A DNA stretch of 64,000 nt from an archaeon. Lineage in GTDB: Archaea > Nanobdellota > Nanobdellia > Woesearchaeales > UBA9642. Position 1 is the first letter of the stretch, and every line of letters starts with the position of its first letter. The notes beneath the pieces are model-generated. The model was not told the origin of the DNA, made no database searches, and saw only the letters and a program-made list of their open reading frames with translations. Made by a program: the position numbers and the translations under genes. Positions 9,201 to 54,111 of the stretch are shown one piece after another. Where the stretch lies: positions 2,136 to 66,135 of the forward strand of contig JAZDHK010000005.1 in assembly GCA_043806035.1 (NCBI GenBank). The letters are read 5' to 3'.

Positions 9201-12200
9201 TCTGGACCCACGTTCCGACATCAGCACTTCTGCTGCAGGCAGCAGTTTCTTTCAGCCAATCACTCCCATTACCTATGCTGCCCTGAATGCTGCTTTTCAT
9301 TATTTTGAAGTTGAAAAGCTCGTCAGTGGCTCCAATGCGCGTACTCAGGACACAGTTATTGTCTCCGTCATTGTCGACGTTCACCCACGCGGCAACGGTA
9401 TAATTGCTCAACGCGAGAGAAGAGGAATACGGCACTTCCACATATTCTTCTCCGCTGAAGTTGTACGCTCCACCAAACTTCCCTCCAGTAATGTCCATAA
9501 CGGGGCAGGAATCACAGGTCGCATTATTATCATTGCCCGAATAGTCACGTGCAAACGTATCATTTTCTCCATACTCTGAGAGGTTATCGAAGTGCACCAG
9601 CAACACAGTGTTGTCGTCTGCAGCAATAGGCGCGGACGTCCAGGGATAAATGGACGTGGTGTTAGTAATACTCAGGTTATACCTGAGAACGCTGGTGTCG
9701 AGCTGGGAAGCGTTCATGCTGCCGAAGAAACGCACGGTCGAGGGAAGCGTGCCATTCACGCTGATGTTCAAGTTCACTGAGGAAACCGTGGCATCATTCG
9801 CTGGGCTGTTCACGGTGATGTACGGAGGAATTCTGTACCCGTAGTAGTGGTAGCCGATGTCGAGAGGAGAGAGATCTCCCGACATGCCGTCGGGGTTCGT
9901 GCCGTAACCTGAAGAAGCAAGCGGAGATCCGCCGTAATAGCTGCCTGCATTGATGATAGGAGAGGACTGGTTCAAGTAATGACTGTTGCCGTTCGCAGCA
10001 ACAAGCGGATTGTCCGTGAGGTTGATCTCGTTGCTGTACGTCTGGTTCGTGCAATTGTCTTCTGTCTGGTTGTAGTATCTGCACGCAACGTTATAGTGTG
10101 CGTTGTAATCATGGACGTATGTGTCGAGCACCTCTGAGTCGTTGAAGCTTATCGAGGTGTTCGTGTTCAGGAAAAGATTATTCGTTATGCTGTTTTGGGG
10201 ATAGTTTGCTGATCCTATTTCTTCTATCGCAACGCCGAGTATGCCATCAAACGTGTTTGAAGCTACAATGAACGCTTCATAGTTAATCTGTTTTCCTTTC
10301 AGGCCGTCCGTGCAGTTGATGATGAGATTTTTTTTGAATTCAGTGATTGTATTGAAGTTGATGTAGCCATCGTTCTCTTTGAAGATGTTGTCGTATATGA
10401 TCATGCCTGCTGTTGGACCGTCCAAATATGGCCTACCGGAAGCGTAACTGACCTGCATCCACTCAAAATGATACGTTGTGGTGCTGTTGATGCTTCCCCA
10501 GTCACCTTTGCTTGGCGTTGCATTGCTTCCTGAAATATTCGCCCCCACTGTATTGTCGTTGATGGAGGTGAAGTACGTCAGTGTGCTGCTCGAATAGGTG
10601 TAATTGAGATTTGCCACGTTGATGCTGCCGTTCCCTGCTGGCGTGCTTGCTGACTTCACGATGCTTCCTGCCAGCAGTGTCCAGTTGCTAACGTATAACG
10701 TGCAGCCTGTGCAGAGGAACAGCGTGTCATTCCTTCCATAATAGACGAGGTTACTGGGCATGATTCTGTTGTAGGTGGTCAGATTGATTTGGAAAGGATA
10801 TGCTGGCGTTGTCTGGTATGCAGAGCTGTTGATGTATGTGAAATTCTGTGCGGCAATGGTCATTCCTGTCGCAAGATTCCAACCCACATTCTCAATGGAT
10901 GTGTTGATGATGCTCAAGCGCGCTGTCTGGTCTGCGCTGATCTCGTACTTTGCCTCTGCAACATCTCCATTCGTGATGTTGCTCAGGTTGGTGCTGAGAT
11001 TTCCCGCATCCTGCACGATGATATTTGCACTGCCGTTCTCTGTCCCGTTCATGCGTATGGTCTCATTGTCCCAGATGACCGTGCCATTGATAGTGAGGTT
11101 GTCGTTGAACCAGAGCGTGCTTCCACCGTCTCGTGAGATGAAGATTGCACCATTTGCCACGCTGGTTGTCCCATTGACGCGCAGTGTGCTGTTCTGCAAG
11201 GTGAGATTGCCTGTTATGTTCAATACGTTAACCGTGAGGTTGGTGTTCGTGAGGTTGAGTGCCGCGTCCGAGGAAATGGTGAGCGCGTCCACTGCCAAAT
11301 TGCTGTCTGCGCAGTTCGTGGCTTGGCTGAGCGTCTCATTTCCTGATGGCGAAGTGCATGCTGTAGTCGACGATTGCCTGGCATCCTTCACCGTGCTGCC
11401 ATTCTGGTCTATAGCCCATGCTGTGTAGTTGTACGTTCTGGATGCTATGCCTAACGTAACGTCCGTGAAGTTGTTCTTTAACTGGTAGAGTCCGCTGTTG
11501 TACGAGGCGTTGATCTCCTGCCATGACAATGTCCTATTCCAGATCTTCAGTTCATCAATGCTGCCGTTGAACCCGCAACAGTATGACCCGCTGCCGATGG
11601 TCACCCAATTTGGGTTTGTTCGGGACAGGCTGCAGTTGCCGTTCGCCAATGAATCGTTGAGTTGGCCGTTGACGTACACTCGCATGGATGTGCTGTTGTA
11701 CGTGCCGCAGCCGTAATACCACGTATCTGCCAGAAGAATAGAGTCACTCAGTCCTACGCTGTATTCCGTGCCAGCTCTTTTGCAGCCGAAGATGAGACTA
11801 TTACTTTCTTGCCAGATGAGCTGGGTGAAGTTGTCATTGTCCCCGTGCCTGTCTCTCAACAGCACTTGTGTCGTGCCGAGACCATCGTCGGCTCGCTTGA
11901 ACCAAAGGCAAATAGTCATTTCAGTGTAGTCCTCGAGCAGGTTCTCGTTTGACGAGACGTTCAGATAGGACGCGTTTCCTCCAGTGAAGGTTACGCCCTG
12001 GCCGAATTTTCCTTCTCCTATCGGCGAAGGGGTCATGTTGGTGAACGTGGCATTGTATCCATATGTTGAGTTGTCGAACACATGCGTGTCGTTGTAGTAT
12101 TCGAACGAATAATAGGCGACGAGACTTCTGTTCCAGTCGAAGAACGCTGACGTGTTCAGCAAGGAGGTGATGGTTGCATTCAGGTATGCCCACGCGGTCG

Positions 12201-15200
12201 TTATGTTCTCTCCCACTTCTGGTGTCGGGTCTTCCCAAGTGATGTTTGGCAAGGCATAGTATGCTATGCTATAATTTTGGCCCCAGTTGCTGTTCCCTAC
12301 AGAGTCATTCCCTTCGCAATTCCAGGTGAAGCTGCCTTCGTACGGGAGGGTGACTGTCCAGTTCGTGCTGTTGCTCGTCCCCCCTACGCTGACGGTTGTG
12401 CGGCTGATGTTCCACCACATACCTTCCTCCCAGATTCTGGCGCTTGAAAGATAGGATCTTAATGTCTGCCAGTCGGTAGAGTTCCAGCATTGCCAATACG
12501 TATCTGTATTGTGCTGATCTGATTCAGCACGCAATTGCAGAGAAGTTTGGTCCCAGCACAATTGCGGTAGAGAGAGATTCATTGTGGCTTCATTATCCTT
12601 CACCTGCCAAAGACTGGTGGATTGTGCCCTGGCTGGCTTTGAGTAATTTACGTACATGTAGCCGGGCTCCTCCTCGTCAGGTAGGTAAGTTCCATACGAT
12701 TCGTAATTTCCATCGTTTAGATTACCTCCGTCCGTCCACATTCCTGTGAGTGCATATGCTCCCGTAGCCAAGCCGCCGCAACTCGTAAGGGTGTTCGCGC
12801 TTTCCTGGTAACACCATTCAGATATGTCCGCTGCGACATTATCTCCCGTGCTGTTCCACACGTACAATGTCACGTTGGCTATTCCTGCATTGTCCGTGAT
12901 GTTGCACGTGAACGTGTTGTCTGCGGTGATTGTGCGGGTCTGGTTGGCTGGACTCACGAGAGTTACTGTTGGAGGGGCACCGTCTATGGTGATCGTTTGC
13001 GTGCTCTTCGTCATGTTGCCGTTCTCATCGGTGGCCCATGCCGTGTAGCTGTACGTGCCGTTGTCAAGCTGAGTGAAGTTGTTCTCCAGCCTGAAGAGGC
13101 CATTGTTGTACGAGGCGTTGATTTCCTGCCAGGAAAGCACCCGTTGATGGATGCGTGCTTCGTCGACAATTCCTTTAAAGGGGTAGCCGCTGCTGCCAAT
13201 TTTTACTGATGAATTTGAAGGGTACAGGTCTGTCATTCCTGCTGTTGCTGTCTGCTTGTCGCCATTGATGTAGACACTGACGTTGTAGCTCTCATTGAGG
13301 GTGAACACGTAATGATACCACGTCCCTACCGTTGCAGAGGCATCTGATATGACGCCACTCATTGTACTTGTTGAATTCCTGAAAGCAACGTTGGTTTTAT
13401 TGTCTGAAGCTAGGCCGTAGATGAGCCAAGAATACCAGGGGGTTTCCGAATGCCACTTGCCAAAGATGTAACTCGCGGTGCCCGTCTCGTTCGGCAGTAC
13501 GTCGTATTTGAACCATATCTCTACAGTGAGCGGTGCAGTTATGAATGTGCCGTTCGCGCCGGCTGCGGACAATGTGGCGCCGGTGCTGAAGTTGAGTCCT
13601 TTGCCATATCGTCCTGTGCTGATGTTGCTCGTGGAGAGTCCTGCTCCAAATGTTGCAAAATAATTGTTGCTCGAATTATCAAGTATGCCTGACGTGTTGT
13701 AGTACTCGAAATTCCAGTACGCGCCTAACGTGTTGTTCCAGTCGAAGAATGCGGACGTGTTCAGGCTGGCGTTCACCGTTGCGTTCAAGTATGCCCAGTC
13801 ATTGGTTGTGGTTGCTCCATTTTCTGGCGTTGGATACTCCCACGTGATGTTTGGCGGATTATACGGTGGGCCTATGGTTGTTGCCGAGCTGTTCAGCCAG
13901 GTGCTGTTAGAGAAGCCATCCTGTGCCTGGCAGGAAAGGATCCAACTATCACCATTCGTTGTGTGGCGGTTGTGCTGCATGCTTACGAACACTTCCTGTC
14001 CTGACGGGAAGCCAGGCATGTAGCTTGACGTGCTATTGACATAGACCGGACTATTACGCTGTGTGTTCGTGCCATCGCCAAGTTCATAGTAGTAGTTTCC
14101 TCCCCAGCATTTCGCCGTGCCGTTCAGCAACACGCCGCAAGTAGAGAATGAGTTAAATGCTGCACTATTATCCCCGCCAGCGTCTACAATCACATATGAT
14201 GCCGTGTCATCAATGAGCACTGGGGAATCCCGCTCTGTAGCGTCACCATGACCTCCTTCACCCACATAGTCAATTCCCCAGCATAATACTCTGCTGTCGT
14301 TTGCTCGAATACCGCAAGCATCAGTTATGCTTACTGTTATCCATGAATAAGCAGCAGTGTCAGTCGTCTGTTTCGGATTAGGTTCATTGCCGGTAGCCGA
14401 TCCAATACCCACTTGTCCCATGCTGTTATCTCCCCAGCAGAGCACTCTCGAGTCGTTTGCTCGAATGCCACACGTCACGCCAATCCCGTTACTAAAACTT
14501 TCAATAGTTATCATGGAGTACGCACTCGTATCATTAATGAGTGTTGGATTGTTTTTTTGTGTTGTGCTGCCATCGCCAAGTTGGCCATTACCATTCAATC
14601 CCCAACATAATACTCTGCTGTCGTTTGCTCTGATGCCACACGTGCTGTCTCCACCGACAGAGATGCTCGAGAATGAAGACGTAGTGTTGATGAGTGTCGG
14701 ATTAATTCTATCTGTATCCTCAGTGCCGTCTCCCAATTGTCCGTAGGTGTTGCTTCCCCAGCAGAGCACTCGTGAATCGTTGGCTCGGATGCCGCACGTC
14801 GTGCCCCATGTGTTTGGAGCACTAGGCCATCCGCCCACACCAACTTGTGTATACGCTGCCGTGTCATTAATGAGCGTTGGATTGAGCTTGTCTGTTGTCG
14901 TGCCATCACCTAACTGTCCACGTTGATTGTCTCCCCAGCATAATACTCTGCTGTCGTTTGCTCGTATGGCGCAGGTGTGTACGTTGCTTGCCGAGACCAT
15001 GAGATACGCGCTCGTATCGTTGATGGGTATGGGATTGTGGCTGTTGCCTCCGGTGCTGCCGTTGCCAAGCTGGCCGTACGTGTTGTCTCCCCAACACAGA
15101 ATGTATGAGTCATTCGCACGAATGCCACACGTATGGACGCCTCCGGTCGTTATGGTGTTTGCTTTGAATAATCTGCCTGAGGTGTTGAGTACATCATTCC

Positions 15201-17964: not shown

Positions 17965-18187
17965 GTTCCCTCTTTCTTCTGGAACGTTGATAGACTGTCC
18001 AGATGGTCCGTTCGTTTCTGTTGAGGAGAATGGCTATTTCCTTGTACGTGTAGCCTCGCTTGTCCTTGAGAAATTCGACTATTGCCTCAAGCACTTTGAG
18101 GGTTCGGTCCTGGAAGATGTAGGAGGGGAAATTGACGTAGTCCGGGAGTTCTTTTTTTCGCTGTTCGTTACTGTCTTTTGTCGTCAC
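17951..18187 (-). CDS. Small HTH DNA-binding protein (LuxR/GerE- or sigma-70 region-4-like helix-turn-helix), 78 aa. Its last 14 nt overlap the start codon of the giant gene.
   Basis: ORF track protein MTTKDSNEQRKKELP...LKVLEAIVEFLKDKRGYTYKEIAILLNRNERTIWTVYQRSRRKREHARK. Its TAG stop at 17951-53 lies out of frame inside the first codons of the giant ORF (ATG 17964). A TATA-like box sits at 18231-18238 upstream. Confidence 0.6.
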   Translation of the reverse strand: MTTKDSNEQRKKELPDYVNFPSYIFQDRTLKVLEAIVEFLKDKRGYTYKEIAILLNRNERTIWTVYQRSRRKREHARK

Positions 18188-18474: not shown

Positions 18475-18589
18475 GCCTCCGTAGCTTAACGGTGGAGCGT
18501 GCGGCTGTTATCCTTGCTGCGTTTGCACAAAAAAAAACACGGCAGGGCAAGTGACCGCAAGGTCACCGGTTCGAACCCGGTCGGAGGCG
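18475..18589 (+). tRNA. tRNA-Asn (anticodon GTT) containing an intron of about 43 nt at the canonical 37/38 position. The intron includes a 9-A run.
   Basis: Hand-folded cloverleaf. Acceptor GCCTCCG/CGGAGGC, D-arm GCT-TAACGGTGG-AGC, anticodon stem TGCGG/CCGCA with loop CTGTTAT, T-arm ACCGG-TTCGAAC-CCGGT, discriminator G. The antisense ORF 18356..18550 is a shadow. Confidence 0.7.
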
Positions 18590-18603: not shown

Positions 18604-18707
18604 GAGCCCGTAGCTTAGCCTGGTGGAGCATCCGACTGATAAAAACGGCCGGTAAACTGGTCGATTGTCGTTTCGGAAGGTCGCGAGTTCAAATCTCGCC
18701 GGGCTCA
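18604..18707 (+). tRNA. tRNA-Ile (anticodon GAT) containing an intron of about 30 nt
   Basis: Acceptor GAGCCCG/CGGGCTC plus A, anticodon stem TCCGA/TCGGA with loop CTGATAA, T-arm GCGAG-TTCAAAT-CTCGC. The antisense ORF 18508..18708 begins 'MSPARFELATF', the classic tRNA antisense translation. Confidence 0.7.
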
Positions 18708-21226: not shown

Positions 21227-24200
21227 ATGTCAAGAACGCTCGCCATTCCCGAGGTCATGGGCGATGCAGCGATCAATATAGCCTTCGATACGATTGCCAG
21301 GGAGAAGCAGGCATTGTTCTTTCTCAATTCCAAACGAAATGCAGAGAGTCTCGCAGAGCGCATCGCAGCCAAGATAAAGGAAGCGCAGCCGAACAATGAC
21401 GTGCTTGCCAAAAAAGCATTGCACCTACCCAAACCGACAAAACAGTGCCAACGCTTGGCCCTCGTCCTGAAAAAGGGAATGGCCTTCCACCACGCAGGCC
21501 TGACGAGCCAGCAAAGAGAACTCATAGAGCAAGGTTTTAGGGAAGGAAACATTAAAATCATTTGTGCGACGCCAACTTTGTGCTTGCATAAAGATGCACT
21601 CATATGGCAAGGTTTGACGGAAAAAAAAGTCTGTGAAATCAAAAAAGGCAACATGGTTTATGCATTAAAAGAAAAAGCTGTAATAAAAGTGCCTGTTTCT
21701 GCAATTCACAAAAACACAGCAACAGGATACCTTACCATCACATCTGTCTCAGGGCATTCGGTGACTGTTACACCCAATCATCGTGTGCTCATAAAGAGAA
21801 ATGGCGAGGTAAAATTAATTCAGGTAAGAGACTGTAAAAAAACAGATTATATCGCAACGCTAGGACTTTTGAGCGTATCTTCCAAAAATGTGCGTCTCTC
21901 TAGATTAGTCAGGGATAATCAACTCCCTTTTTCTGATAAACTGCTGGATCCGAATGATTATTATCTCATCGGAAGTATGTTGGGAGATGGATACTCAGGA
22001 GCAGAATATAGAGGGAAAAAGATAATCTATAAAGGTTCACCATGTATTGTGGGTAACGACCAAGAAATATTTGCCAGGATAAAGGACAAGTGTGCGCAAT
22101 ATGATTTGTTGTGCAAAGCGGATAAGAACTATCACGGGACGAACCAACTCATACTCAGTAAGAAGAAATGGTTCAGAGAATTTCTTTGCCGTGCGGGTAT
22201 ACAAATCCGAGAACAAAAGCACATATGTGTATCTCTCCTCGGAGCGCCTGAATCTTGTGTTCGTGCTCTGCTTCAGGGATTGTTCGATACAGATGGCTAT
22301 GTGCAGCAATACCGCAATGTGGGATTTTCAAACATATCCTGTGTGCTCGTTCGTCAAATGCAGAGACTATTATTACGATGGGGCATAGTAACCAGATTCA
22401 GGCAAAGAAAACCGGGCAAAATGAAAATGTACGGTAAAGAGTATTTAACAAAAATCGGCTACGAGTTAACGATAGTACATAAACTCAGCATCCTTAAATT
22501 CAATGAGTGTGTTGGCTTTTCCGTTGAAAGAAAGAAAAAATCCTTACAAGTAATCGTTGCGAACATAATGGACAACATTCATTACGCACACTGTCCAATT
22601 TGCAAGTATAGAATATACGCTGATCTTTTTACGGGAAGAACTAAAGAACAACAACTTTGGGGAAAACAAAAACACACAATTCTCTCATTCCTTGGGCGAT
22701 ATGGAGAGTTAGCGTCTAATGAGATCATTAAACGTTTGGGAATAGAACCGAGAAAAAAAGACAGACGTCTTAATCATCATTATCAACTCATTACAAAAAG
22801 AAAGAAGGGAGTCATAAGCAAGACAGAATGGTACTGGTCACTAAATGCCATTGGCTCGTATCTTTATAAGCATGACCTGTTCAATAATCTCACTTTGTTT
22901 TTTAAGAGAACGCACTGTCCCCTCTGCGGTACTGAACTTATGATGCGACTAAAATCAGGTTGGAGAACGAAAGACATAGATGGAGACATTTTTTGGGACA
23001 AAATACATTCCCTAGAACCCACCTTTGTTAAGGAAGAATCATATGATGTTGTTCTGTCTACAGACAGGAGTAATGATCACTTGTTTGTAGCGAACGGCAT
23101 ATTTGTTCATAATTCGGCAGGCGTTGACCTTCCTGCTTTTCGCGCGGTCATCCGTGACGTGCAACGGTACGGCAAGCACGGCATGCAGCACATTCCCGTC
23201 CTGGAGTATGAGCAGATGGCGGGCAGGGCGGGCAGGCCGGGCAAGGACGACCACGGTGAGGCAATTCTCATCGCAGCATCCGAGAAGGATAAGCAGCTCC
23301 TCAAGGAAGCATACGTTGATGGGGAAACAGAATCCATTTACAGCAAGCTTGCGGTAGAGCCTATCCTGAGGACGTACTGCCTCAGTCTTATTGCGACGAA
23401 CTACGTCAAGGACGAGAACGAACTAAAGACATTCTTTGCGAAGACGTTCTACGCACACCAGTATGGCGACCTTAAAAAATTGGCAAAATTGCTCGACAAG
23501 ACCATCGCGCGACTGCAGGAATGGCAGTTCTTGCACAACAGCAAGGATGATTTTGTGGGTGCAGACCAGTTGCTCAGAAAAGAGACTGCGCTTGCGGCAA
23601 CCCTGTTCGGCAAGAGGACATCAGAGCTCTATCTTGACCCGTATACGGCACGGTTCTTGCTGGACTGCATACTCACCACGAGAAAGAGAACGCCGAGCGT
23701 CTTTTCCTACCTGCATGTCCTGTGCTCCTGCTTGGAAATGCGGCCGCTGCTCAGAGTGAAAGTTGCTGACATGGACACGCTGCAGGCAAAAATAACCCTG
23801 CACAGCGAGGAGCTCTTAGTGAAAGAACCCTCGTATTATGACGAGGAGTACGATGCCTTCCTACAGTCATGCAAGACGGCGCTGTTTTTCATGGACTGGA
23901 TTAATGAAATGAATGAGGATGATTTGTTGAACACGTATGATGTCCGTCCTGGTGAGATTCGCGCAAAACTCGACATTGCAGACTGGCTACTCTACGCGAT
24001 GGAAGAATTGGCACGCATCAGCAAGAACCTCGGTGTCATCGCAGATGTGCGAAAGCTCAGAGTGCGGTTGAAGCACGGCGCTAGGGAGGAATTGCTACCC
24101 CTACTCAAATTGAAGGGCATAGGCAGGGTGCGGGCGAGACTGCTCTTCAAGAACGGCGTCAAGGACATTGGCGGCGTAAAAGAGGCGAGCACGACGACGC

Positions 24201-24322
24201 TTGGCCAGTTGCTCGGCAAGGCCATTGCAGAGGACATCAAGAAGCAAGTTGGTGAGGACATCCCCGAAGAAGTGAGCCCTCGCAAGCGCAAAGGCCAGAT
24301 GTCGATGGACAAGTACGAATGA
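21227..24322 (+). CDS. hel308: Hel308/Hjm (Ski2-like) DNA helicase, C-terminal fragment only (RecA2 domain onward plus winged-helix, ratchet and HhH domains), interrupted by a 511-aa intein. No RecA1 (Walker A/DEAH) domain is encoded.
   Basis: The ORF begins ...ALFFLNSKRNAESLAERIA (start of helicase domain 2). Motifs HHAGL and IICATPTL|C...VHN|SAGVDLPA follow, then MAGRAGRPG (motif VI). The C-terminal ...LLKLKGIGRVRARLLFKNG is the HhH domain. An in-frame TGA at 21149-51 precludes any N-terminal extension. Confidence 0.85.
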   Translation: MSRTLAIPEVMGDAAINIAFDTIAREKQALFFLNSKRNAESLAERIAAKIKEAQPNNDVLAKKALHLPKPTKQCQRLALVLKKGMAFHHAGLTSQQRELIEQGFREGNIKIICATPTLCLHKDALIWQGLTEKKVCEIKKGNMVYALKEKAVIKVPVSAIHKNTATGYLTITSVSGHSVTVTPNHRVLIKRNGEVKLIQVRDCKKTDYIATLGLLSVSSKNVRLSRLVRDNQLPFSDKLLDPNDYYLIGSMLGDGYSGAEYRGKKIIYKGSPCIVGNDQEIFARIKDKCAQYDLLCKADKNYHGTNQLILSKKKWFREFLCRAGIQIREQKHICVSLLGAPESCVRALLQGLFDTDGYVQQYRNVGFSNISCVLVRQMQRLLLRWGIVTRFRQRKPGKMKMYGKEYLTKIGYELTIVHKLSILKFNECVGFSVERKKKSLQVIVANIMDNIHYAHCPICKYRIYADLFTGRTKEQQLWGKQKHTILSFLGRYGELASNEIIKRLGIEPRKKDRRLNHHYQLITKRKKGVISKTEWYWSLNAIGSYLYKHDLFNNLTLFFKRTHCPLCGTELMMRLKSGWRTKDIDGDIFWDKIHSLEPTFVKEESYDVVLSTDRSNDHLFVANGIFVHNSAGVDLPAFRAVIRDVQRYGKHGMQHIPVLEYEQMAGRAGRPGKDDHGEAILIAASEKDKQLLKEAYVDGETESIYSKLAVEPILRTYCLSLIATNYVKDENELKTFFAKTFYAHQYGDLKKLAKLLDKTIARLQEWQFLHNSKDDFVGADQLLRKETALAATLFGKRTSELYLDPYTARFLLDCILTTRKRTPSVFSYLHVLCSCLEMRPLLRVKVADMDTLQAKITLHSEELLVKEPSYYDEEYDAFLQSCKTALFFMDWINEMNEDDLLNTYDVRPGEIRAKLDIADWLLYAMEELARISKNLGVIADVRKLRVRLKHGAREELLPLLKLKGIGRVRARLLFKNGVKDIGGVKEASTTTLGQLLGKAIAEDIKKQVGEDIPEEVSPRKRKGQMSMDKYE
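21581..23113 (+). mobile_element. Intein (511 aa) with a LAGLIDADG homing-endonuclease domain and CxxC/CxxC zinc-ribbon-like insertions, inserted in helicase motif V (ATPTL^AAGV-type site)
   Basis: The intein's first residue is Cys after ATPTL. Its last residues are HN, followed by Ser (+1). LAGLIDADG motifs are LIGSMLGDGYSG and LLQGLFDTDGYV. HCPICKY...HCPLCG Cys pairs are also present. Frame arithmetic: 21581-21227=354 and 23114-21227=1887, both multiples of 3. Confidence 0.8.
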
Positions 24323-27386: not shown

Positions 27387-27896
27387 TTAAACATTTCTCT
27401 CCTCTGGGCTACAACACCTTGTCACGATGTCTTGAACGATGGTCTGTACTGGTTGTGTGGCATCTATGTTCTTTCCATATTCGAAGCGGTTCACGAGCAT
27501 GTGCACTGCCCTTGCCGCATCTTCCCCATAGCCGTTCTTGCGCGCCGTATCACGCGCTATGCAGGCATCCACTGGAGCAGTGAGAGTGAAGACATACCCT
27601 GGAACAGGCATCTCTCCTATGAGTTCATCTATGTTCTCCTTATGATAAAAGCAACCGTCGATGACTACCGGCTTTGTCTTGAGTGCCGTTCGTATGTGCG
27701 GCAACATGATTGCTTGTGCTTTGCGGAACTGCTCTGCAGGGATGCACGGCTCATCTTTAGGGACGAGATCAAGCTTGTGCTCGACCATAACCGCATCAAG
27801 TGCTATGTACGCTGCATGGAGTTGCTTCGCGACCGCTTGTGCTATTGTCGTTTTGCCAACGCCCAAAGGACCGCGGATGAGGACATAGTAGCTCAT
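27387..27896 (-). CDS. P-loop kinase (AAA_33/chloramphenicol-phosphotransferase-like NTP kinase)
   Basis: LIRGPLGVGKTTIA Walker A. 169 aa, no further family signature. Confidence 0.55.
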   Translation of the reverse strand: MSYYVLIRGPLGVGKTTIAQAVAKQLHAAYIALDAVMVEHKLDLVPKDEPCIPAEQFRKAQAIMLPHIRTALKTKPVVIDGCFYHKENIDELIGEMPVPGYVFTLTAPVDACIARDTARKNGYGEDAARAVHMLVNRFEYGKNIDATQPVQTIVQDIVTRCCSPEERNV

Positions 27897-27947
27897 GCAC
27901 TAAGGATCGCCTATACCTATATAAATCATGCTCTTCTTCCAGGCAGC

Positions 27948-30035
27948 ATGTGCGGCATTGTCGGTTGTCAGAACGAGCATGCAGATGAACTCCTGAGGAA
28001 AGGGCTTATGACGCTCCACTATAGAGGCAAGGATGGCGTTGGTGTTGCCTCCGCACGAGCCAGAAGCACAGCAGCATCTCTCTCTCATCTCGATTTTTCC
28101 TGCAAGGACAACATCATGTTCGGGCACACGCTGCATGCCATTGTTGATGTAGTGCCGCAACCGTTTCTGGGAAAGGGCATGCTGGTGGTGAATGGTGAAA
28201 TCTATAATTGGAAAGAGCTAGCGGAAAAATGTGGCAGGCATGCCGTGAATGATGCAGAACTGCTCTTCCAGCTTCTCGAGCAGAAAACTCTTGAGCAGAT
28301 TCCTGCACTCATTGAAGAATTGGATGGCGATTACGCCTTCGCATACGCACGTGAAGGTAAAATCATTCTTGCCAGGGACATCATCGGCGTGAAGCCGCTC
28401 TGGATTGCACAGCCATTCGCCTTCGCTTCAGAACGGAAAGCACTCTATGCCATGGGCTTTGCATATGCAGAAGAGCTCAATCCACGACAGATACTTATCT
28501 ATGATACAGCAACAAAGACCACAACGGCAATACAACGGAATTTCTTCATCGAACATCCAGAACTGGACCTGCCAAAACAGGCCATCATCGATCAATTGCA
28601 TGTCCTTTTCGAGCAAGCAGTACAGAAACGAATTCCCGAGCAAAAGCTCGGCATACTCTTCTCCGGAGGCATAGATTCTACATTGCTTGCTTGGTTCTGC
28701 AAAAAACACGCCATTCCATTCACGTGCTACACTGCGGCCGTCAGCGAGACTGCTGAGGATCTTGTCTGGTCGAGAAAAGTGGCACAGGAACTGGACTTTC
28801 CGCTCAAGGAAATCATCATCGACAAGGACGACCTTCCTGCATTGCTCAAGGAACTAGTCCCTCTCATTGAGTCATCGAACGTCGTGAAAGTTGGCGTTGC
28901 CCTTCCCTTGTTTTGTGCGACACGGCTCGCGAAGGAAGACCATGTCAAAATTCTTTTTTCTGGGTTAGGCAGCGAGGAACTCTTTGCGGGTTATGAACGT
29001 CACCTGCGTGCAACGAACATTAACAAAGAATGCATTGCCGGGCTGAGGAAAGTGTACGAGCGGGACTTGTACAGGGATGACGTACTCACCATGTACAACA
29101 CGATAGAGCTCCGCGTCCCTTTTCTTGACAGAGCCCTTGTCGACTTTGCCGTGCGCATCCCTGCACAATACAAAATAGTCGGCATGCACAAAAAACACAT
29201 TTTGCGCGAGCTTGCCCTGCAGCAAGGCCTGCCAGAACACGTAGCGTTCCGGCCGAAGCGGGCGGCGCAGTACGGCAGCAAGTTCGATGCGGCACTCGAG
29301 AAGCTAGCAAAGCAGAACAGGCAAAACAAGTCTGCCTACCTCAAGCAGTATTACGACCACAATCTTCGGCTCGGCGTGCTGTTCTCGACGGGGAAGGACA
29401 GCAATTACGCCCTGTATATCATGCAGCAGCAGAATTACGACGTCACCTGTCTCATCACGATCAGTTCAGAGAATCCTGACTCGTACATGTATCACACGCC
29501 CACTATTTATTTGGCGAAGGAACAGGCGGACTGCTTGGGCTTGCCATTGCTGGTGAAAGAGACTGCGGGTGAGAAGGAAGAGGAGTTGGTCGAGTTGGAG
29601 CAGGCTATCCGCGAGGCGAAAGAGCAGTATGCACTAGATGGAATTGTGACAGGAGCACTGTATTCTACGTATCAGCGTGACAGGATTGAGCGTGTCTGCG
29701 AGAAGCTCGGCCTGAAAGTATTCCATCCACTCTGGCACAAACAACAGGAAGAGGTGATGCGTCAGCTCATCGACGACGGCTTCCAGTTTATTCTTACCAA
29801 GGTTGCTGCAGAAGGCCTTGACAAATCTTGGTTGGGCAGGGTCATTACGCACGATGATGTGGACAGGCTCGTTGTGCTGAGCAGGCAGTACGATATCAAT
29901 GTTGCAGGAGAGGGAGGGGAGTTTGAAAGTTTCGTGCTCTACGGGCCGCTGTTCAAGAAAGCGCTCACCATAAAAAAATCGCACGTACGCAAAGATGGGG
30001 CGGCATATGAACTCGTCATCGACGAGCATGCATGA
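27948..30035 (+). CDS. Three-domain fusion: asparagine synthetase (glutamine-hydrolysing; class-II GATase plus AsnB PP-loop synthetase) joined to a C-terminal Dph6/MJ0570-like ATP_bind_4 amidoligase domain (diphthine-ammonia ligase-like)
   Basis: The start MCGIVG (Cys2 nucleophile) is at 27948. The first listed ATG at 27381 is antisense to the kinase gene. LGILFSGGIDST is the AsnB PP-loop. A C-terminal run of about 230 aa, LGVLFSTGKDSNYALYIMQQ...EGGEFESFVLYGPLF, matches the MJ0570/Dph6 ATP-binding family. Single ORF, 696 aa. Confidence 0.8.
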   Translation: MCGIVGCQNEHADELLRKGLMTLHYRGKDGVGVASARARSTAASLSHLDFSCKDNIMFGHTLHAIVDVVPQPFLGKGMLVVNGEIYNWKELAEKCGRHAVNDAELLFQLLEQKTLEQIPALIEELDGDYAFAYAREGKIILARDIIGVKPLWIAQPFAFASERKALYAMGFAYAEELNPRQILIYDTATKTTTAIQRNFFIEHPELDLPKQAIIDQLHVLFEQAVQKRIPEQKLGILFSGGIDSTLLAWFCKKHAIPFTCYTAAVSETAEDLVWSRKVAQELDFPLKEIIIDKDDLPALLKELVPLIESSNVVKVGVALPLFCATRLAKEDHVKILFSGLGSEELFAGYERHLRATNINKECIAGLRKVYERDLYRDDVLTMYNTIELRVPFLDRALVDFAVRIPAQYKIVGMHKKHILRELALQQGLPEHVAFRPKRAAQYGSKFDAALEKLAKQNRQNKSAYLKQYYDHNLRLGVLFSTGKDSNYALYIMQQQNYDVTCLITISSENPDSYMYHTPTIYLAKEQADCLGLPLLVKETAGEKEEELVELEQAIREAKEQYALDGIVTGALYSTYQRDRIERVCEKLGLKVFHPLWHKQQEEVMRQLIDDGFQFILTKVAAEGLDKSWLGRVITHDDVDRLVVLSRQYDINVAGEGGEFESFVLYGPLFKKALTIKKSHVRKDGAAYELVIDEHA

Positions 30036-30880: not shown

Positions 30881-31570
30881 GTGAAGGTCATTGATGTCAT
30901 CGATGTCGCGCCGCAAGTGCGGACCATACGTCTCGAGCGTCCCAAAGATTTTTCGTACAAACCAGGACAGTTCTTGCTCGTCTCCATGCAGGTAAATGGG
31001 GAGATGCGGCGCAGGGCGTACAGCATAGCGAGCTCTCCAACGGAGCCGGACTATGTAGACATAACGTTCAAAAAAGTAGCAGGAGGGATGGTAAGCCCAA
31101 GACTCTACGATCTCAGTATCGGCGATGAGCTGGACGCCAAAGGACCGTATGGCTTATTCACGTTGGACGAGACGCACCTACAAAACCTCGTGCTCGTTGG
31201 CGGAGGAACGGGCATAACTCCATTGCGGAGCATCATGAAATTTGTCGTCGACAAAAAACTGGAGAACGTGAACATTTCCCTCATCTACGGAGCGAGAACC
31301 CCACTCGATCTCGTCTACCATGATGAAATCCAGGCCATGCACGCCAACCATAGCAAGATACGCATTTTCTTCACAATTGAGCAGGATGGCGGAGAGCCCT
31401 GGCCCTGGCACAGAGGCATGGTTTCAGTAGATTTTATTAAGGAGAGCGTTCCCGACTATGCGGGGTGCATGTACTATTTGTGTGGCCCTCCACTCATGAT
31501 CGAGCACCTCCTGCACGAGCTCGTCCAGCAAGGGGTTGATCCTCGCAACATCCATGTTGACCGGTGGTGA
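30881..31570 (+). CDS. FNR-like FAD/NAD(P)-binding oxidoreductase (hydrogenase-gamma/PyrK-like, without a C-terminal Fe-S Cys cluster)
   Basis: RAYSIAS (RxYS FAD motif), GGTGITP (NAD-binding) and a CGPP motif. The start is uncertain: in-frame GTG codons at 30794, 30860 and 30881. The listed N-terminus at 30548 is antisense to trx. Confidence 0.7.
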   Translation: MKVIDVIDVAPQVRTIRLERPKDFSYKPGQFLLVSMQVNGEMRRRAYSIASSPTEPDYVDITFKKVAGGMVSPRLYDLSIGDELDAKGPYGLFTLDETHLQNLVLVGGGTGITPLRSIMKFVVDKKLENVNISLIYGARTPLDLVYHDEIQAMHANHSKIRIFFTIEQDGGEPWPWHRGMVSVDFIKESVPDYAGCMYYLCGPPLMIEHLLHELVQQGVDPRNIHVDRW

Positions 31571-31601
31571 ATGGACGAGCAGATGGATTGATGGGTATGG
31601 C

Positions 31602-32585
31602 ATGGTAACGATGACTGCGTATCGGCAAGACAAAGAGACATTCGGCAAGTTCATGCTTGCACTGCTCAAGAACAGCAAGGTCTATGCGCCGCTCAACAAA
31701 GACGTCGTGCGCTTTTCTCAACTGACAAACGAGGACATACCCAACATATATTTAGAGAAGAATGCGTACTTTCCGTTGAAAGAATATTTTTTTAGGCATC
31801 AGCAAACACTCTTCACATTCAAAAAGAATGATTTGCAGCCCATCATTGAAGAAGAGCCTGCACGTGTATTCTTTGGCGTAAGAAAGTGCGACCTCAACGC
31901 CATACACCATCAGGACATGGTGTTCTTGCAGGACGCGAAAGACCCCTATTATGCGGCAGCCAGGAAAAATGTACTGCTTTTCGGCTATCACTGCGATGAA
32001 GCACCTTCACCGCATTGTTTTTGTGGCTCTCTCAATCTTGTCGACTGCTATGATTTGATGTTCTATGACAAGGGAGATTATTTCCTCATCGAAGTGGGTT
32101 CTGAGAAAGGGCAAGACATCGTTGACAAGCACGCATCGTTCTTTGTACAAGGCAGAAAGGTAACACAGGAGGAGAAACAGATTAGGAATGCAGACCGCTT
32201 GCTCAAACACGACATCTCTGCGCTCTATGATCATCCTGACTGGCAGAAAGGCGTGAAGCTCTGCCTTTCCTGTGCTGCTTGCACGGCGCTCTGTCCAACG
32301 TGCTACTGCTTCGACATACACGACGAGCTTTCCACAAAAGATCCAACAGCAGGAGAACGCATACGGCAGTGGAGTTCTTGCCAATTGCCAGAATTCACGA
32401 AGGTCGCGGGCAATCACATATTCAGGCAGGACAGAGCACAGCGCTTCAAGCACCGCATCTACCACCAGTTGGACTATTTCAAGCAGAAGTACGGCATCCA
32501 GCTCTGCGTTGGCTGCGGCAGGTGCATCGAAGGCTGCCCTACCCGGATAGATTTTGTACAGATCATCAACGAGATGAACCCATGA
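31602..32585 (+). CDS. hydB: Hydrogenase beta subunit (sulfhydrogenase HydB-like, Cys-rich Fe-S cluster-binding subunit)
   Basis: MVTMTAYRQDK start after the previous stop. C-terminal CLSCAACTALCPTCYC and CVGCGRCIEGCP ferredoxin-like clusters. Confidence 0.8.
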   Translation: MVTMTAYRQDKETFGKFMLALLKNSKVYAPLNKDVVRFSQLTNEDIPNIYLEKNAYFPLKEYFFRHQQTLFTFKKNDLQPIIEEEPARVFFGVRKCDLNAIHHQDMVFLQDAKDPYYAAARKNVLLFGYHCDEAPSPHCFCGSLNLVDCYDLMFYDKGDYFLIEVGSEKGQDIVDKHASFFVQGRKVTQEEKQIRNADRLLKHDISALYDHPDWQKGVKLCLSCAACTALCPTCYCFDIHDELSTKDPTAGERIRQWSSCQLPEFTKVAGNHIFRQDRAQRFKHRIYHQLDYFKQKYGIQLCVGCGRCIEGCPTRIDFVQIINEMNP

Positions 32586-33445
32586 GCAAGGCAACAAAAA
32601 AAGAAAAGAGCAAGAAAGAAAAGGGCAAGATGCACCCAGGTGCTGGTGTGCTCAACCCCTACTTACCCTTTCCTTACAAGGTGCTCGACTTCTATCGAGA
32701 AACACCCGACACGTTCACCATCACCGTCGACATGAAAGTCCAGCATGACCCTGGCCAGTTCGTGCAGGTGAGCCTGCCAGGCATTGGAGAGAGTCCCATC
32801 AGCATCTGTTCCGACTCGCGAGAATACATCAAACTCAACGTCAGAGAGGTGGGCAATGTCACCAAAGCACTAGCCCATTTGAAGAAAGGCGACACCATTC
32901 TTCTTCGCGGCCCGTACGGGCACGGCTATCCCATGAAAGAACTCAAGGGGCACACGCTCATCATCATCGGTGGAGGATGCGGCGTCGCACCCCTGAAAGG
33001 CATCATCGACTATGTCGAGAATCATCGCAACGAGTATCATGACGTGCTGCTTTTTCTTGGCTATCGTTCTCCTAACGACATCATCTTCCAGCGGGAGCTC
33101 GTGGAATGGAAAGACAAATACCATTTGCAGGTGAGCGTTGATAAGAATCCACAAGGGCAGTTCTGCTACGACGCCAAAGAAGGGTTCATTACACAAATGC
33201 TGCAGGAAACAACATTCACTACGGAAGGGAGCATCGTCTTTCTCTGCGGGCCGCCCATCATGCTGGACAAAGTCCTCGAGATTTTGTACGCGAAGGGATT
33301 CCAGGACGATCACATCTTCGTCAGTGCAGAACGCCTCATGTATTGTGGTATCGGCGTGTGCTGCCACTGCATGATCCATGGAAAGTACGCATGTGTTGAT
33401 GGTCCTGTCTTCAGGCAGGATGAGTTGAGGTACAAGAATGACTGA
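32582..33445 (+). CDS. hydG: Hydrogenase gamma subunit (FAD/NAD(P)-binding, C-terminal [2Fe-2S] CGIGVCCHC)
   Basis: The MSKATKK start overlaps the hydB stop (ATGA). GGGCGVAP NAD motif. C-terminal C-x4-C-x2-C...C cluster. Confidence 0.85.
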   Translation: MSKATKKEKSKKEKGKMHPGAGVLNPYLPFPYKVLDFYRETPDTFTITVDMKVQHDPGQFVQVSLPGIGESPISICSDSREYIKLNVREVGNVTKALAHLKKGDTILLRGPYGHGYPMKELKGHTLIIIGGGCGVAPLKGIIDYVENHRNEYHDVLLFLGYRSPNDIIFQRELVEWKDKYHLQVSVDKNPQGQFCYDAKEGFITQMLQETTFTTEGSIVFLCGPPIMLDKVLEILYAKGFQDDHIFVSAERLMYCGIGVCCHCMIHGKYACVDGPVFRQDELRYKND

Positions 33446-34220
33446 TACGACCAGCAAAAAGCCCATAGTGGGATTTTACGGTATCACGGGCTGTGCAGGT
33501 TGCTTGCTCTCCGTTATTTTCAATGAGAACGACATACTTGACCTGCTCAACCTTATCGACCTGCGGGCATTCCCTTTCATCAAAGAAGTAAATGTGGATG
33601 ACCATTTCGACTATGTTTTCATCGAAGGCCTTGTGGCGAGCAACGAGGACAAGGACGTCATCGAAAAGCTCAGGAAGAATTCCACCTTCGTCGTCAGCCT
33701 AGGTGCGTGCGCCTGCACGGGTTGCGTGCCTGCCTATCGTCACTTCTCGCTCAAGGAAAATTATGAGCACTTGCTCTACCAGAAAGAGCACAATGTGCAG
33801 GACGTCGAACCAACACCCATCGATATGCACATCGCTGTTGATTATTACGTGCCCGGCTGCCCGCCTGACAAGAAACAGATACTGCAGTTCATCAAGCAGC
33901 TCGTCAGGGGAAAGCAGCCGATGCCCTACACGAATCCTGTCTGCGTGGAGTGCAGGCGCAACCAGAACCAGTGCTTGCTTGACCTGGGAAAGCCCTGCCT
34001 CGGACCCATCACCGTAGGTGGCTGCAACAGCGTCTGTATCAATGGTGGCTTCGAATGCTGGGGATGCAGGGGACCCACGAACGACATGAATCTCGACCTT
34101 ATGATCAGTATTCTCAAGCAGAAAGGATTTGACGACAAGTTTATCCACGACCGAATGCGCACGTTTGCAGGACTGAAACTGCCCATGCTGGAGAAACTCA
34201 ATGAAAACCATAACCCTTAA
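33438..34220 (+). CDS. hydD: [NiFe]-hydrogenase small subunit (delta)
   Basis: GCAGC near the N-terminus, GCPP, and multiple Cys ligands for Fe-S clusters. 260 aa. Confidence 0.85.
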   Translation: MTDTTSKKPIVGFYGITGCAGCLLSVIFNENDILDLLNLIDLRAFPFIKEVNVDDHFDYVFIEGLVASNEDKDVIEKLRKNSTFVVSLGACACTGCVPAYRHFSLKENYEHLLYQKEHNVQDVEPTPIDMHIAVDYYVPGCPPDKKQILQFIKQLVRGKQPMPYTNPVCVECRRNQNQCLLDLGKPCLGPITVGGCNSVCINGGFECWGCRGPTNDMNLDLMISILKQKGFDDKFIHDRMRTFAGLKLPMLEKLNENHNP

Positions 34221-35469
34221 CCACATAACAAAGATCGAAGGGCACGCAAAGCTCAATCTCAGCATAGATGAAGGAAAAGTGAGTGTCTGCGAACTTTCAG
34301 CAGTGGAAGGCTCGCGATACTTCGAAGGGCTGGTCATCGGCAGAAAATATTTTGAGGCGCATGAGATAACCTCTCGCATTTGTGGCATTTGCTCGTGTGC
34401 CCATGTCATCGCAGCCATCACTGCCATTGAGAACGCGCTCGGCTTCCACGCTAGTCAGCAAACAAAACAGCTCAGGGAATTGCTCATGATTGGGGAGCGC
34501 ATAAGGAGTCATGCAACGCATCTCTACTTCCTTGCCCTGCCAGATTATCTCGGCTATGAATCAGCGCTCGCCATGGCAGGTAAATACAAGAAAGAGATCC
34601 AACGGGCTCTTGCCATGATGCGTATGGGCAATCTCATCGTCAAGACTATTGGCGGCAGGGACTTGCATCCCATCTCGGCAACGGTCGGTGGCTGGCTCAA
34701 ACTCCCTGACAAGGAACAGCTCAACATGCTTGCAAAGGAACTCTTTGCCTTGACTGCTGATGCTTTGGCGACCGTCAAGCTCTTCGCAGGCCTCAAGAAT
34801 CCTGTCTTCCATTCAGAGACGGAATGGTTCAGCATCTCGCACGCAAAAGAATATGCGTTGTTGGAGGGCATGTTCATCTCCCAGAAGACAAAATTCGAGC
34901 CCGTCCGTTATAAGGAGTTCATCAGGGAATATCATGAGCCGAGGAGCACGAGCAATTTCATCGTCAAGAAAGACCACAGATACATGGTGGGGGCGCTAGC
35001 GAGACTGAACAACAACCACCAGCACCTTTCGGCGAACGCAAAGCGCGCCCTGCAGCTCGCAAAACTCAAGATGCCCTCGGACAATCCCTACCATAACAAT
35101 CTCGCGCAGGCAATAGAGATTGTGCACTGCATTGACCATGCCATCCGCATTTGCAAGGCAGGCGTGCAGCCTGAACCGGTAGCGAACATTCCACTGCGTG
35201 CGGGCACGGGCATTGCTGCCATCGAAGTTCCTCGGGGGACGCTCTGGCACGAATACACGGTCGATGAGAAAGGCACAATCATAAAAGCGAACATCATCAC
35301 GCCGACAGCGCAGAACCTGCTGAACATGCAAGAGGACATCCGCTCCTTCCTGCCCAGCATCATCAATAGGTCAAAAGAGTACATCGTGCTTGCTGTGGAA
35401 AAGCTCATCAGGAGCTACGATCCGTGCTTCAGCTGCTCGGCGCACTTCCTCGAGGTCAACTGGCGATGA
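34201..35469 (+). CDS. hydA: [NiFe]-hydrogenase large subunit (alpha)
   Basis: N-terminal RICGICSCAH and C-terminal DPCFSCSAH Ni-Fe-binding motifs. 422 aa. Confidence 0.9.
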   Translation: MKTITLNHITKIEGHAKLNLSIDEGKVSVCELSAVEGSRYFEGLVIGRKYFEAHEITSRICGICSCAHVIAAITAIENALGFHASQQTKQLRELLMIGERIRSHATHLYFLALPDYLGYESALAMAGKYKKEIQRALAMMRMGNLIVKTIGGRDLHPISATVGGWLKLPDKEQLNMLAKELFALTADALATVKLFAGLKNPVFHSETEWFSISHAKEYALLEGMFISQKTKFEPVRYKEFIREYHEPRSTSNFIVKKDHRYMVGALARLNNNHQHLSANAKRALQLAKLKMPSDNPYHNNLAQAIEIVHCIDHAIRICKAGVQPEPVANIPLRAGTGIAAIEVPRGTLWHEYTVDEKGTIIKANIITPTAQNLLNMQEDIRSFLPSIINRSKEYIVLAVEKLIRSYDPCFSCSAHFLEVNWR

Positions 35470-42308: not shown

Positions 42309-42422
42309 TGCGGGGAGGAGGATTCGAACCCCCGAAGGCACTAAGCCACATGGCGTTTCTATCTGAAAGCGTTGCTTCCAGATGCCTGAACCATGCCCGA
42401 TTGGCCGCTCCGGCACCCCCGC
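42309..42422 (-). tRNA. tRNA-Leu (anticodon CAG), type II with a long variable arm, containing a 31-nt intron at the canonical 37/38 position
   Basis: The reverse complement folds as: acceptor GCGGGGG/TCCCCGC plus A, D-arm CCG-GAGCGGCCAAT-CGG, anticodon stem CATGG/CCATG with loop TTCAGGC, variable arm TGGCTTAGTGCC, T-arm GGGGG-TTCGAAT-CCTCC. Confidence 0.7.
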
Positions 42423-43240
42423 AAAATCATGTTTAGTTTACGGACTTTCTTCTTACACGTCAGTAGACGCTGTTCTTTTATAAGTTTAACGTATCCGACA
42501 GGTATCCTAAGTTCATAGTGCAGTCCGACTGATTCCCCTATATACACGCGTACGGGATAGATTGTTGAACATATGCCTAATCGCATAAGTGACGATGCAA
42601 TATCTCTGAGTATGTTCGATTGAGGAACGCTTCGGAGGGTTTCTTTTACCTTGTTCCATCTGACAAAATACACCCGTCTATCTTTCATGTTGTATGCATT
42701 TGCCTGCCGTATCAGTTGATTCCTTGTTTTCGCGTCAACAAAAAGACGAACAGACTGCTGCACTGCTACCGTTTTGTGAACACTTGCCTCTGCATTGAAA
42801 AATCCACGAATGAATGCTACATGCATTTCCTTATTTTGAAGAATGTGCAGTGGAGCATTGGGGTTTATTGCGCTTTTTTTTCCTGCAGGATACCCTAACG
42901 AGGCCATGTGCTTTGCAAGGCTCCTTCTGAACCGAACAACAAATATGCCTTCTTTTTTCTGAATCTTCGGTTTGAATCCAAAAACGAACTGAGTTAGGGT
43001 GCTTGCTCTGCGAACGAGATCTTTCTCGTCATGAGAGAAGGTGAGTACAAGATTATAGAGTCCCCCTCGCGTGTTCTTGTATTTGTGCAGCGAACCGTCA
43101 CCGTAGAGATTGCCGAGCAATTCAGCAAATGCCTCTGCTTTCTTTTTCTTGAATGTTGATGATGGATTGTATGTTGTCGATCTTCCTCGCATGGCGTTTT
43201 TGCTTTCTTGAGTTCTTTGCGTATCTGTTCCCTGCCACAC
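42359..43240 (-). CDS. LAGLIDADG homing endonuclease (double-motif), possibly degenerate. The C-terminal 64 nt read into the tRNA-Leu 5' exon and stop inside its intron.
   Basis: LLGNLYGDGSL (motif 1) and IRGFFNAEASV (motif 2). 293 aa. The N-terminal 35 aa are low-complexity. Confidence 0.6.
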   Translation of the reverse strand: MWQGTDTQRTQESKNAMRGRSTTYNPSSTFKKKKAEAFAELLGNLYGDGSLHKYKNTRGGLYNLVLTFSHDEKDLVRRASTLTQFVFGFKPKIQKKEGIFVVRFRRSLAKHMASLGYPAGKKSAINPNAPLHILQNKEMHVAFIRGFFNAEASVHKTVAVQQSVRLFVDAKTRNQLIRQANAYNMKDRRVYFVRWNKVKETLRSVPQSNILRDIASSLMRLGICSTIYPVRVYIGESVGLHYELRIPVGYVKLIKEQRLLTCKKKVRKLNMILRGCRSGQSGMVQASGSNAFR

Positions 43241-43356: not shown

Positions 43357-43405
43357 TACCGTTTGACCACCGAAGAATTTTCAAATCAATCTAGTGGGTA
43401 AATAG

Positions 43406-43478
43406 TGGGGCTGGTGAGATTTGAACTCACGACATCCACCATGTGAGGGTGGCGTCATAACCACTAGACCACAGCCCC
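43406..43478 (-). tRNA. tRNA-Val (anticodon CAC), no intron
   Basis: The reverse complement GGGGCTGTGGTCTAGTGGTTATGACGCCACCCTCACATGGTGGATGTCGTGAGTTCAAATCTCACCAGCCCCA folds as a canonical cloverleaf. Confidence 0.85.
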
Positions 43479-53258: not shown

Positions 53259-53370
53259 GTGTTGTGGCAATCCTGAACGATATTTAAAATCTCTGGAAAT
53301 AGCGTATTTTTCTTTTTTGGAGCGCAATCTATTTAAAAGAAGAGAACAAGGGTTGTTGAGGGGTGTTACT

Positions 53371-54111
53371 ATGTTATTGACTGTTGTGTTAATTGTGGTG
53401 GGACTGTACTTGCTTGCGGGAATCAGGGTCATTAATCAGTACGAGCAGGCAATTATTTTTACGTTGGGCAGGTTCACTGGCGTGCGTCAGCCAGGATTGC
53501 AGTTCATCTTCATCATCTTCCAGCGCATGGTAATAGTGGATTTGCGTGTTAGGACGATAGACATCGACAAGCAACAGGTCATGACGGAAGACAACGTGCC
53601 TGTTCTGGTAAATGGTGTCGTGTTCTTCAAAGTACGAAAGATCCAGGACGCCATCATTAAGGTGCAGGATTACGAGTACGCTATTGCGCAGTACGCACAG
53701 ACTGCGTTACGAGATGTGATCGGCGGCATGACCCTCGATACCGTTCTTGGCCAGCGTCAGAAAGTGGGTGATGAAATTAGGAAGATCGTTGACAAGGAGA
53801 CTGACCAGTGGGGTCTTGATGTGCAGGTCATCAAATTGCAGGACATCGAAGTGCCGAATGACCTCAAGACGATCATGAGCAGGCAGGCAGGAGCAGAGAG
53901 AGAAAAGCGCGCGAACATCATCAAGAGCGAAGGTGACCTTGCAGCGTCGAAGAATCTCTCTGCGGCAGCAGGCATCATGGCGAAGAACAAGGGAGCCATG
54001 CAGCTGCGTACATTACAGACCCTCGATGGCCTCGGACCGACGGCCAGCAACACGGTGGTCATAGCTTTGCCTGTCGAGCTGATGGAGTTTTTCGACAAGT
54101 TCAAGAAATGA
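53371..54111 (+). CDS. SPFH/band-7 (stomatin/prohibitin-like) membrane protein
   Basis: N-terminal TM followed by an SPFH domain (VINQYEQAIIFTLGRF...). A GAGGGGTG SD precedes the ATG at 53371. Confidence 0.8.
   Translation: MLLTVVLIVVGLYLLAGIRVINQYEQAIIFTLGRFTGVRQPGLQFIFIIFQRMVIVDLRVRTIDIDKQQVMTEDNVPVLVNGVVFFKVRKIQDAIIKVQDYEYAIAQYAQTALRDVIGGMTLDTVLGQRQKVGDEIRKIVDKETDQWGLDVQVIKLQDIEVPNDLKTIMSRQAGAEREKRANIIKSEGDLAASKNLSAAAGIMAKNKGAMQLRTLQTLDGLGPTASNTVVIALPVELMEFFDKFKK

Follow-up and report, generated by a model that had tools for sequence, protein, structure and literature searches.

The 64,000-nucleotide stretch of DNA analyzed here (the window; contig JAZDHK010000005.1, from an archaeon of the Woesearchaeales) carries on its forward strand a gene whose single product combines a class-II glutamine amidotransferase (GAT-II) domain, an AsnB-type PP-loop synthetase domain, and a Dph6-type domain. 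The open reading frame (ORF) runs from 27948 to 30035, begins with ATG and an MCGIVG N-terminus, ends with TGA, and comprises 695 codons with zero internal stops. An earlier note on this DNA had reported a single 696-aa ORF; the frame is indeed single and uninterrupted, but its length is 695 aa plus the stop. The ATG at 27948 was taken as the start because the homologs all begin with Met-Cys, a requirement of an N-terminal-nucleophile (Ntn) amidotransferase. A longer frame opening with GTG at 27381 was rejected, as it overlaps an opposite-strand gene (27387-27896) and would displace the Met-Cys N-terminus. The position of a TATA-like box ahead of the ATG suggests a leaderless or short-leader archaeal transcript. 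The gene and its features are as follows.

27918..27925 (+): TATA-like box TATATAAA, its center ~27 nt upstream of the ATG (sequence reading only)
27948..30035 (+): three-module coding sequence, 695 aa plus stop, GAT-II, AsnB-type PP-loop, and Dph6 (frame translation, profile scans)
27948..28535 (+): class-II (Ntn) glutamine amidotransferase domain, residues 1-196, nucleophile Cys2 (Pfam, alignments)
28131..28133 (+): codon of Leu62, at the position of E. coli AsnB Arg49 and human ASNS Arg48 (alignments)
28560..29282 (+): AsnB-type PP-loop (adenylating) synthetase domain, residues 205-445 (Pfam; alignments with human ASNS, E. coli AsnB, and CarA; Foldseek)
28662..28679 (+): first PP-loop, SGGIDS, residues 239-244 (sequence and alignment)
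28965..28967 (+): codon of Leu340, at the position of E. coli Glu348 and human Glu364 (alignments)
29262..29372 (+): conserved junction AAQYGS...KS.YL..FY..HNL.LG, residues 439-475 (conservation and AlphaFold2 model)
29367..30026 (+): Dph6/DUF71/PF01902 domain, residues 474-693 (profiles, alignment, fold match)
29385..29402 (+): second PP-loop, STGKDS, residues 480-485 (sequence and alignment)
29910..29927 (+): Dph6 signature EGGEFE, residues 655-660, corresponding to E183-G-G-E186-x-E188 in PF0828 numbering

Profile searches assign the three modules. In Pfam, GATase_7/GATase_6 covers residues 51-167, Asn_synthase begins at residue 219 (E 2e-49), and Diphthami_syn_2 (PF01902) covers residues 476-689 (E 2e-66). 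Among NCBIfam models, the Dph6_archaeal profile TIGR03679 scores 277.2 bits over residues 477-693 against an equivalog cut-off of 197.3. The asparagine synthetase model asn_synth_AEB (TIGR01536) gives a marginal 266.1 bits, just under its cut-off of 267.1, and a further asparagine synthetase profile, NF006949, stays below its cut-off (204 vs. 499). The domain assignment made from the letters alone was thus right in all three modules; the C-terminal part does belong to the ATP_bind_4 family by both the PF01902 match and the Dph6 profile, and the quoted motifs (the MCGIVG start, SGGIDS at 239-244, STGKDS at 480-485, and EGGEFE at 655-660) were all found.

The fusion is widespread. A search of 5.8 billion proteins returned a 100% identical NCBI protein on a 71-kb contig, annotated "MAG: diphthine--ammonia ligase [archaeon]", and at least 120 further protein clusters with the same three domains (680-746 aa, 50-57% identity, 96-100% coverage). 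A genome scan with one genome per prokaryotic species found 363 relatives, of which the best 80, taken for the locus counts, all match over their full length. The carriers include metagenome-assembled genomes (MAGs) of Woesearchaeota, "Nanoarchaeota", Iainarchaeota, and Nanobdellota, together with Methanosarcinaceae, among them the cultured Methanolobus bombayensis DSM 7082 and M. psychrotolerans YSF-03, Methanomethylovorans, and a genome of ANME-3 (anaerobic methanotrophic archaea). The GAT-II/AsnB/Dph6 fusion is common in the small-celled DPANN archaea and in some methanogens. Fused genes were also seen in an Altiarchaeota MAG (L058, JAUXGB010000063.1) and in a MAG labeled Acidobacteriota bacterium (L044, DATGWN010000068.1); the latter label is probably a binning or labeling error, because Dph6 is an archaeal and eukaryotic enzyme. 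In precomputed domain lists, a Pfam PF28410.1 match is recorded on every fused homolog (P0002-P0120).

The fusion is not new. An AsnB domain (GAT-II plus the Asn_Synthase_B_C PP-loop) N-terminal to DUF71 was described in Methanohalophilus mahii, Methanosalsum zhilinae, and "Ca. Nanosalinarum" (de Crécy-Lagard et al. 2012, Biol Direct 7:32, PMC3541065), with the same order of domains and the same functional hypothesis as considered here. The window contributes one more member, from a DPANN-like MAG, to a family now far larger than the "few Archaea" of that report, and its protein is 48-49% identical over the full length to the fused genes of the related genus Methanolobus. The statement in the earlier note that no other case was known cannot stand, given the 2012 publication and the spread of the fusion over the genomes of at least 80 species and over at least 120 protein clusters; the search it proposed for the same fusion in other archaeal genomes was borne out. 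Table S1 of the 2012 paper lists one DUF71 homolog each in M. mahii and M. zhilinae (PMC3541065), so the fused protein should be the sole Dph6 of these two species. In 2018, the dph genes of archaea were surveyed without discussion of the fusion. Within the 64-kb window, no second copy of Dph6 or AsnB was found.

The C-terminal module has the sequence properties of Dph6, the last enzyme in the synthesis of diphthamide, which modifies elongation factor 2 (EF-2) and is conserved in archaea and eukaryotes. The module aligns with the stand-alone archaeal enzymes PF0828 (PDB 3RJZ/3RK0/3RK1) and PH1257 (PDB 2D13) at E about 1e-54 and ~40-44% identity, and its predicted model superposes on their structures with a template-modeling score (TM) of 0.92-0.93 and a root-mean-square deviation of 1.1-1.3 A (Foldseek). 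The fold, the PP-loop, EGGExE, and the predicted EF-2 contacts are shared, but the stand-alone proteins are without a fused glutaminase or a second PP-loop domain and presumably draw on free NH3. Residue conservation was measured across 120 fused homologs, with genome copies scored separately. In the second PP-loop, S480, G482, K483, D484, and S485 (S12, G14, K15, and D16 of PF0828) are invariant, and EGGEFE is invariant across the family. The motif EGGE/D-x-E188 marks Dph6, whereas the B12-salvage subgroup DUF71-B12 has ENGEF/YH instead (PMC3541065). The same work named thirteen residues as catalytic or, by prediction, EF-2-contacting (S12, K15, D16, S44, Y45, H48, E78, Y103, Q104, A149, E183, E186, and E188, the last being catalytic; PMC3541065), and all thirteen are conserved across the fused family. 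The predicted EF-2 contacts S44, Y45, E78, Y103, Q104, A149, E183, and E186 correspond here to S512, Y513, E546, Y575, Q576, A621, E655, and E658. As read from its sequence, the module keeps every signature and predicted EF-2-contact residue, and the suggestion of a new amidoligase activity for this C-terminal part finds no support. In eukaryotic Dph6 (yeast YLR143W), the shared PF01902 catalytic domain is followed by two C-terminal RidA/YjgF-like domains proposed to supply ammonia (PMC3541065); these are unrelated to the N-terminal AsnB-type amidotransferase that is the fusion partner in the window.

The AsnB-like half was aligned to E. coli AsnB (sequence from NC_000913) and human ASNS. It shares the two-domain fold of E. 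coli AsnB (PDB 1CT9) and human ASNS (PDB 6GQ3; Foldseek TM 0.78), including the Cys1 nucleophile, N74/E76/D98, SGGxDS, K449, D384, and R387, but it is ~90 residues shorter. In the Ntn domain, the nucleophile Cys2 (AsnB Cys1) and R26, N82, E84, and D102 (R30, N74, E76, and D98 of E. coli AsnB) are invariant in the 120 homologs. In SGGIDS, both serines and both glycines are invariant and the Asp is present in 119/120; K437, at the position of E. coli Lys449 and human Lys-466, is Lys in 118/120 and Arg in the remaining two. E352, Y357, D384, R387, R400, and K429 (E. coli numbering) are also kept across the family. Against this background, three deviations from AsnB and ASNS stand out. At the position of E. 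coli Arg49, Leu62 replaces the arginine in 120/120 fused homologs and in 63 of 64 genome copies; at the position of E. coli Glu348, Leu340 is Leu in 118/120 clusters and Leu, Ser, Asn, or Met in genome copies, never Glu; and the TTIR (TTxR) motif has become V-K-V-G. Selection on the middle PP-loop domain is strong, and ATP is probably still bound there.

These deviations are not peculiar to the fusion. When residues 1-461 were queried exhaustively against 1.84 billion representatives, 666 matches below 1e-30 were obtained. Of the best 150, 50 have a Dph6 domain, and another ~50, which look complete at 430-600 aa, stand alone and show the same signature; an example of the latter is the 479-aa Methanosphaera sp. 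MAG protein MCD7782051.1, annotated as asparagine synthetase B. These short archaeal proteins, which are without a Dph6 domain, are 35-51% identical to the first 461 residues of the fused protein; in 37/50 of them the residue aligned with R49 is Leu, and in 46/50 the one aligned with E348 is Leu or Gln. Since the stand-alone proteins share them, the R49 and E348 deviations do not stem from the fusion, and the module can be placed in a subfamily of short AsnB-like proteins from archaea. We know of no measurement of the activity of this subfamily.

The three modules are predicted to form one body. An AlphaFold2 model built from a 120-sequence alignment covers all 695 residues with a mean predicted local distance difference test score (pLDDT) of 93.5 and a predicted TM (pTM) of 0.90. 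The junction at residues 439-475 is modeled as ordered helices (440-443, 446-456, and 461-466; pLDDT 87-96) with no flexible linker, and it is among the most conserved stretches of the protein, AAQYGS (A439-S444) being invariant and many of its neighbors nearly so. The ordered and conserved junction, together with the high pTM, points to a fixed arrangement of the domains in a rigid three-domain body, as a channeling enzyme would need.

On the conserved residues and the predicted model, we favor with moderate confidence the reading that the fused gene is this archaeon's Dph6 and works as a glutamine-dependent diphthamide synthetase. The Dph6 domain would bind EF-2 and adenylate the carboxylate of diphthine with ATP, a step put forward because the catalytic and EF-2-contact residues are fully conserved. 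Cys2 of the GAT-II domain would hydrolyze glutamine, as expected because the nucleophile and the oxyanion and amino-group ligands are invariant. For the third step, the fusion and the confident rigid model suggest that ammonia may be passed within the three-domain body to the Dph6 site, in which case the enzyme would depend on glutamine and not on free ammonium. The channeling of glutamine-derived ammonia to diphthine, as the earlier note proposed, is made plausible by the invariant nucleophile, the intact Dph6 site, and the rigid model, yet it is something that we infer and that was already in print. The same ammonia-supply hypothesis was reached independently in 2012, when NH3 from glutamine hydrolysis was proposed to possibly serve both PP-loop enzymes (PMC3541065). 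L. Aravind, who reviewed the 2012 paper, wished to know which of the two PP-loops takes the ammonia and what the AsnB-like one does (PMC3541065).

Several points weigh against a glutamine-dependent diphthamide synthetase. In AsnB itself, the ammonia tunnel leads to the synthetase site of the same enzyme, and archaeal Dph6 of the stand-alone form, like that of yeast, does without a fused glutaminase. Human ASNS Arg-48 is an N-domain residue placed to contact glutamine (PMC6748925), and glutamine binding may be altered because this position is Leu across the family. The gene neighborhood of the 80 fusion loci is without a conserved partner: none of dph2, dph5, or EF-2 is a conserved neighbor there, and a cytidylyltransferase-like ORF recurs in 18/80 only. 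Around the stand-alone AsnB-like genes, three contexts were informative and had no neighboring PF01902 gene; a fourth (P0124), which ends 21 nt past the stop, was left out of the neighbor check. A neighbor-joining tree of the AsnB-like part, built to ask whether the fusion had a single origin, is star-like and poorly resolved, with fused and stand-alone proteins intermixed. Finally, our literature searches found no biochemical test of any fusion member, the only paper being the comparative-genomics study of 2012.

The strongest competing explanation is a bifunctional protein with independent activities, in which the AsnB module uses aspartate, ATP, and glutamine to make free asparagine for asparagine--tRNA ligase (AsnRS), and free ammonium is what the Dph6 module draws on to amidate diphthine; the fusion would then provide no more than co-expression of two amidation enzymes, or a shared glutaminase as worded in PMC3541065. 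We regard this as possible and worth keeping in mind, though unlikely. The window encodes an AsnRS (54285-55598, +; NF003037 484 bits vs. a cut-off of 414). tRNA-Asn is therefore charged with free asparagine, which is needed, and an asparagine-synthesis role of the middle domain stays alive. Both PP-loop sites are intact and invariant, E. coli AsnB D384, R387, K429, K449, E352, and Y357 are conserved, the TIGR01536 score falls only 1 bit short, and stand-alone forms of both halves exist, genomically unlinked. These observations must be set against the active site itself, where a Glu matching human Glu-364 is absent throughout and its place is taken by Leu, Ser, Gln, Asn, or Met. In human ASNS, E364A and E364Q are inactive even with ammonia, and Lys-466 is essential (PMC6748925). 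CarA, a carbapenam synthetase related to AsnB that acts on another substrate, likewise deviates at the Glu364 position, where the alignment places Tyr, and the change of TTxR to V-K-V-G also speaks against asparagine synthesis. Furthermore, a rigid conserved junction and a high pTM would not be expected of a fusion serving mere co-expression.

It is also conceivable, and in our view rather improbable, that the middle domain no longer makes asparagine and has become an ammonia conduit, an ATP-dependent gate to the Dph6 site, or an enzyme adenylating another carboxylate. The family-wide replacement of human Glu364 by Leu, Ser, or Gln, of TTxR by VKVG, and of human Arg48 by Leu, with the rest of the site invariant, could be explained in this way. 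Human Glu-364 lines the end of the ammonia tunnel (PMC11615228) and is needed for activity (PMC6748925), and a hydrophobic residue at this place would fit an extended tunnel. However, the strict conservation of SGGxDS, K429, K449, D384/R387, and E352 speaks for an adenylation site that still functions, identical changes are found in stand-alone members, where there is no Dph6 to be supplied, and the missing Arg and Glu may just be offset by Lys314, which is nearly invariant. For the middle domain, asparagine synthesis and another role may both be entertained, and a new amidoligase activity may also reside there.

A more far-reaching version, which we offer as speculation with a low chance of being right, extends to the whole short archaeal AsnB-like subfamily. 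Fused or not, its members would be dedicated glutamine-amidotransferase partners of Dph6 and not asparagine synthetases. In the fused enzyme, ammonia from the Ntn glutaminase would reach the Dph6 site through a remodeled hydrophobic site that formerly bound aspartate (Glu to Leu, Arg to Gly), and the first PP-loop would act as an ATP-dependent gate. If true, this would be the first example of a glutamine-dependent amidoligase that combines two PP-loop sites in series and modifies a protein side chain. The last alternative, neighboring asnB and dph6 genes that only look fused in this MAG because a frameshift arose in sequencing or assembly or a stop codon was lost, has nothing in its favor beyond the metagenomic origin of the contig and is dismissed as having a negligible chance, because 80/80 related loci, isolates included, keep both PP-loops within one stop-free frame, with a common module order and the conserved junction sequence.

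Other features of the window are recorded here. At its start, 1-18033 (-) is occupied by one stop-free frame of at least 6011 codons that runs off the window, contains RCC1-like WGDNSYGQLGNGT repeats, and lies where the AT skew is strongly negative (-0.2 to -0.33); it probably encodes a giant surface protein of the DPANN-archaeal kind. Two Rfam tRNA matches at 18475-18589 and 18604-18707 (+; 115 and 104 nt, 53.6 and 58 bits), where ARAGORN reported none, are probably intron-containing archaeal tRNAs. An archaeal helicase of 1031 aa (Helicase_dom4_arc; 21227-24322, +) is split by an intein with a LAGLIDADG homing-endonuclease domain, and a free-standing LAGLIDADG_3 ORF (42359-43240, -) lies just upstream of tRNA-Val (43405-43478). 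The cluster at 30881-35469 (+) resembles a group-3b (sulfhydrogenase-type) NiFe hydrogenase, with an FNR-like FAD/NAD subunit, a Fer4_22 iron-sulfur subunit, an Oxidored_q6 small subunit, a NiFeSe_Hases large subunit, and a second PyrK-like ORF identified by eye. A tRNA-guanine transglycosylase (52143-53432, -) matches the bacterial queuine-type Tgt (TIGR00430, 433 bits vs. a cut-off of 307) and fails the archaeosine TgtA profile (TIGR00432, 144 vs. 350), which is unusual on an archaeal contig.

To our knowledge, the physiological ammonia source of the last step of diphthamide synthesis is not established, and no other genomic evidence hints as clearly as the fusion at the use of glutamine for diphthamide in some archaea. 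As this was published in 2012, the window brings a further member of the family and not a discovery. The family is useful now, being large and including cultured Methanolobus strains suited to biochemistry. In its AsnB-like half, two positions that have been tested for function depart from the characterized asparagine synthetases, so the question asked in 2012, what the second PP-loop does, can be put more sharply.

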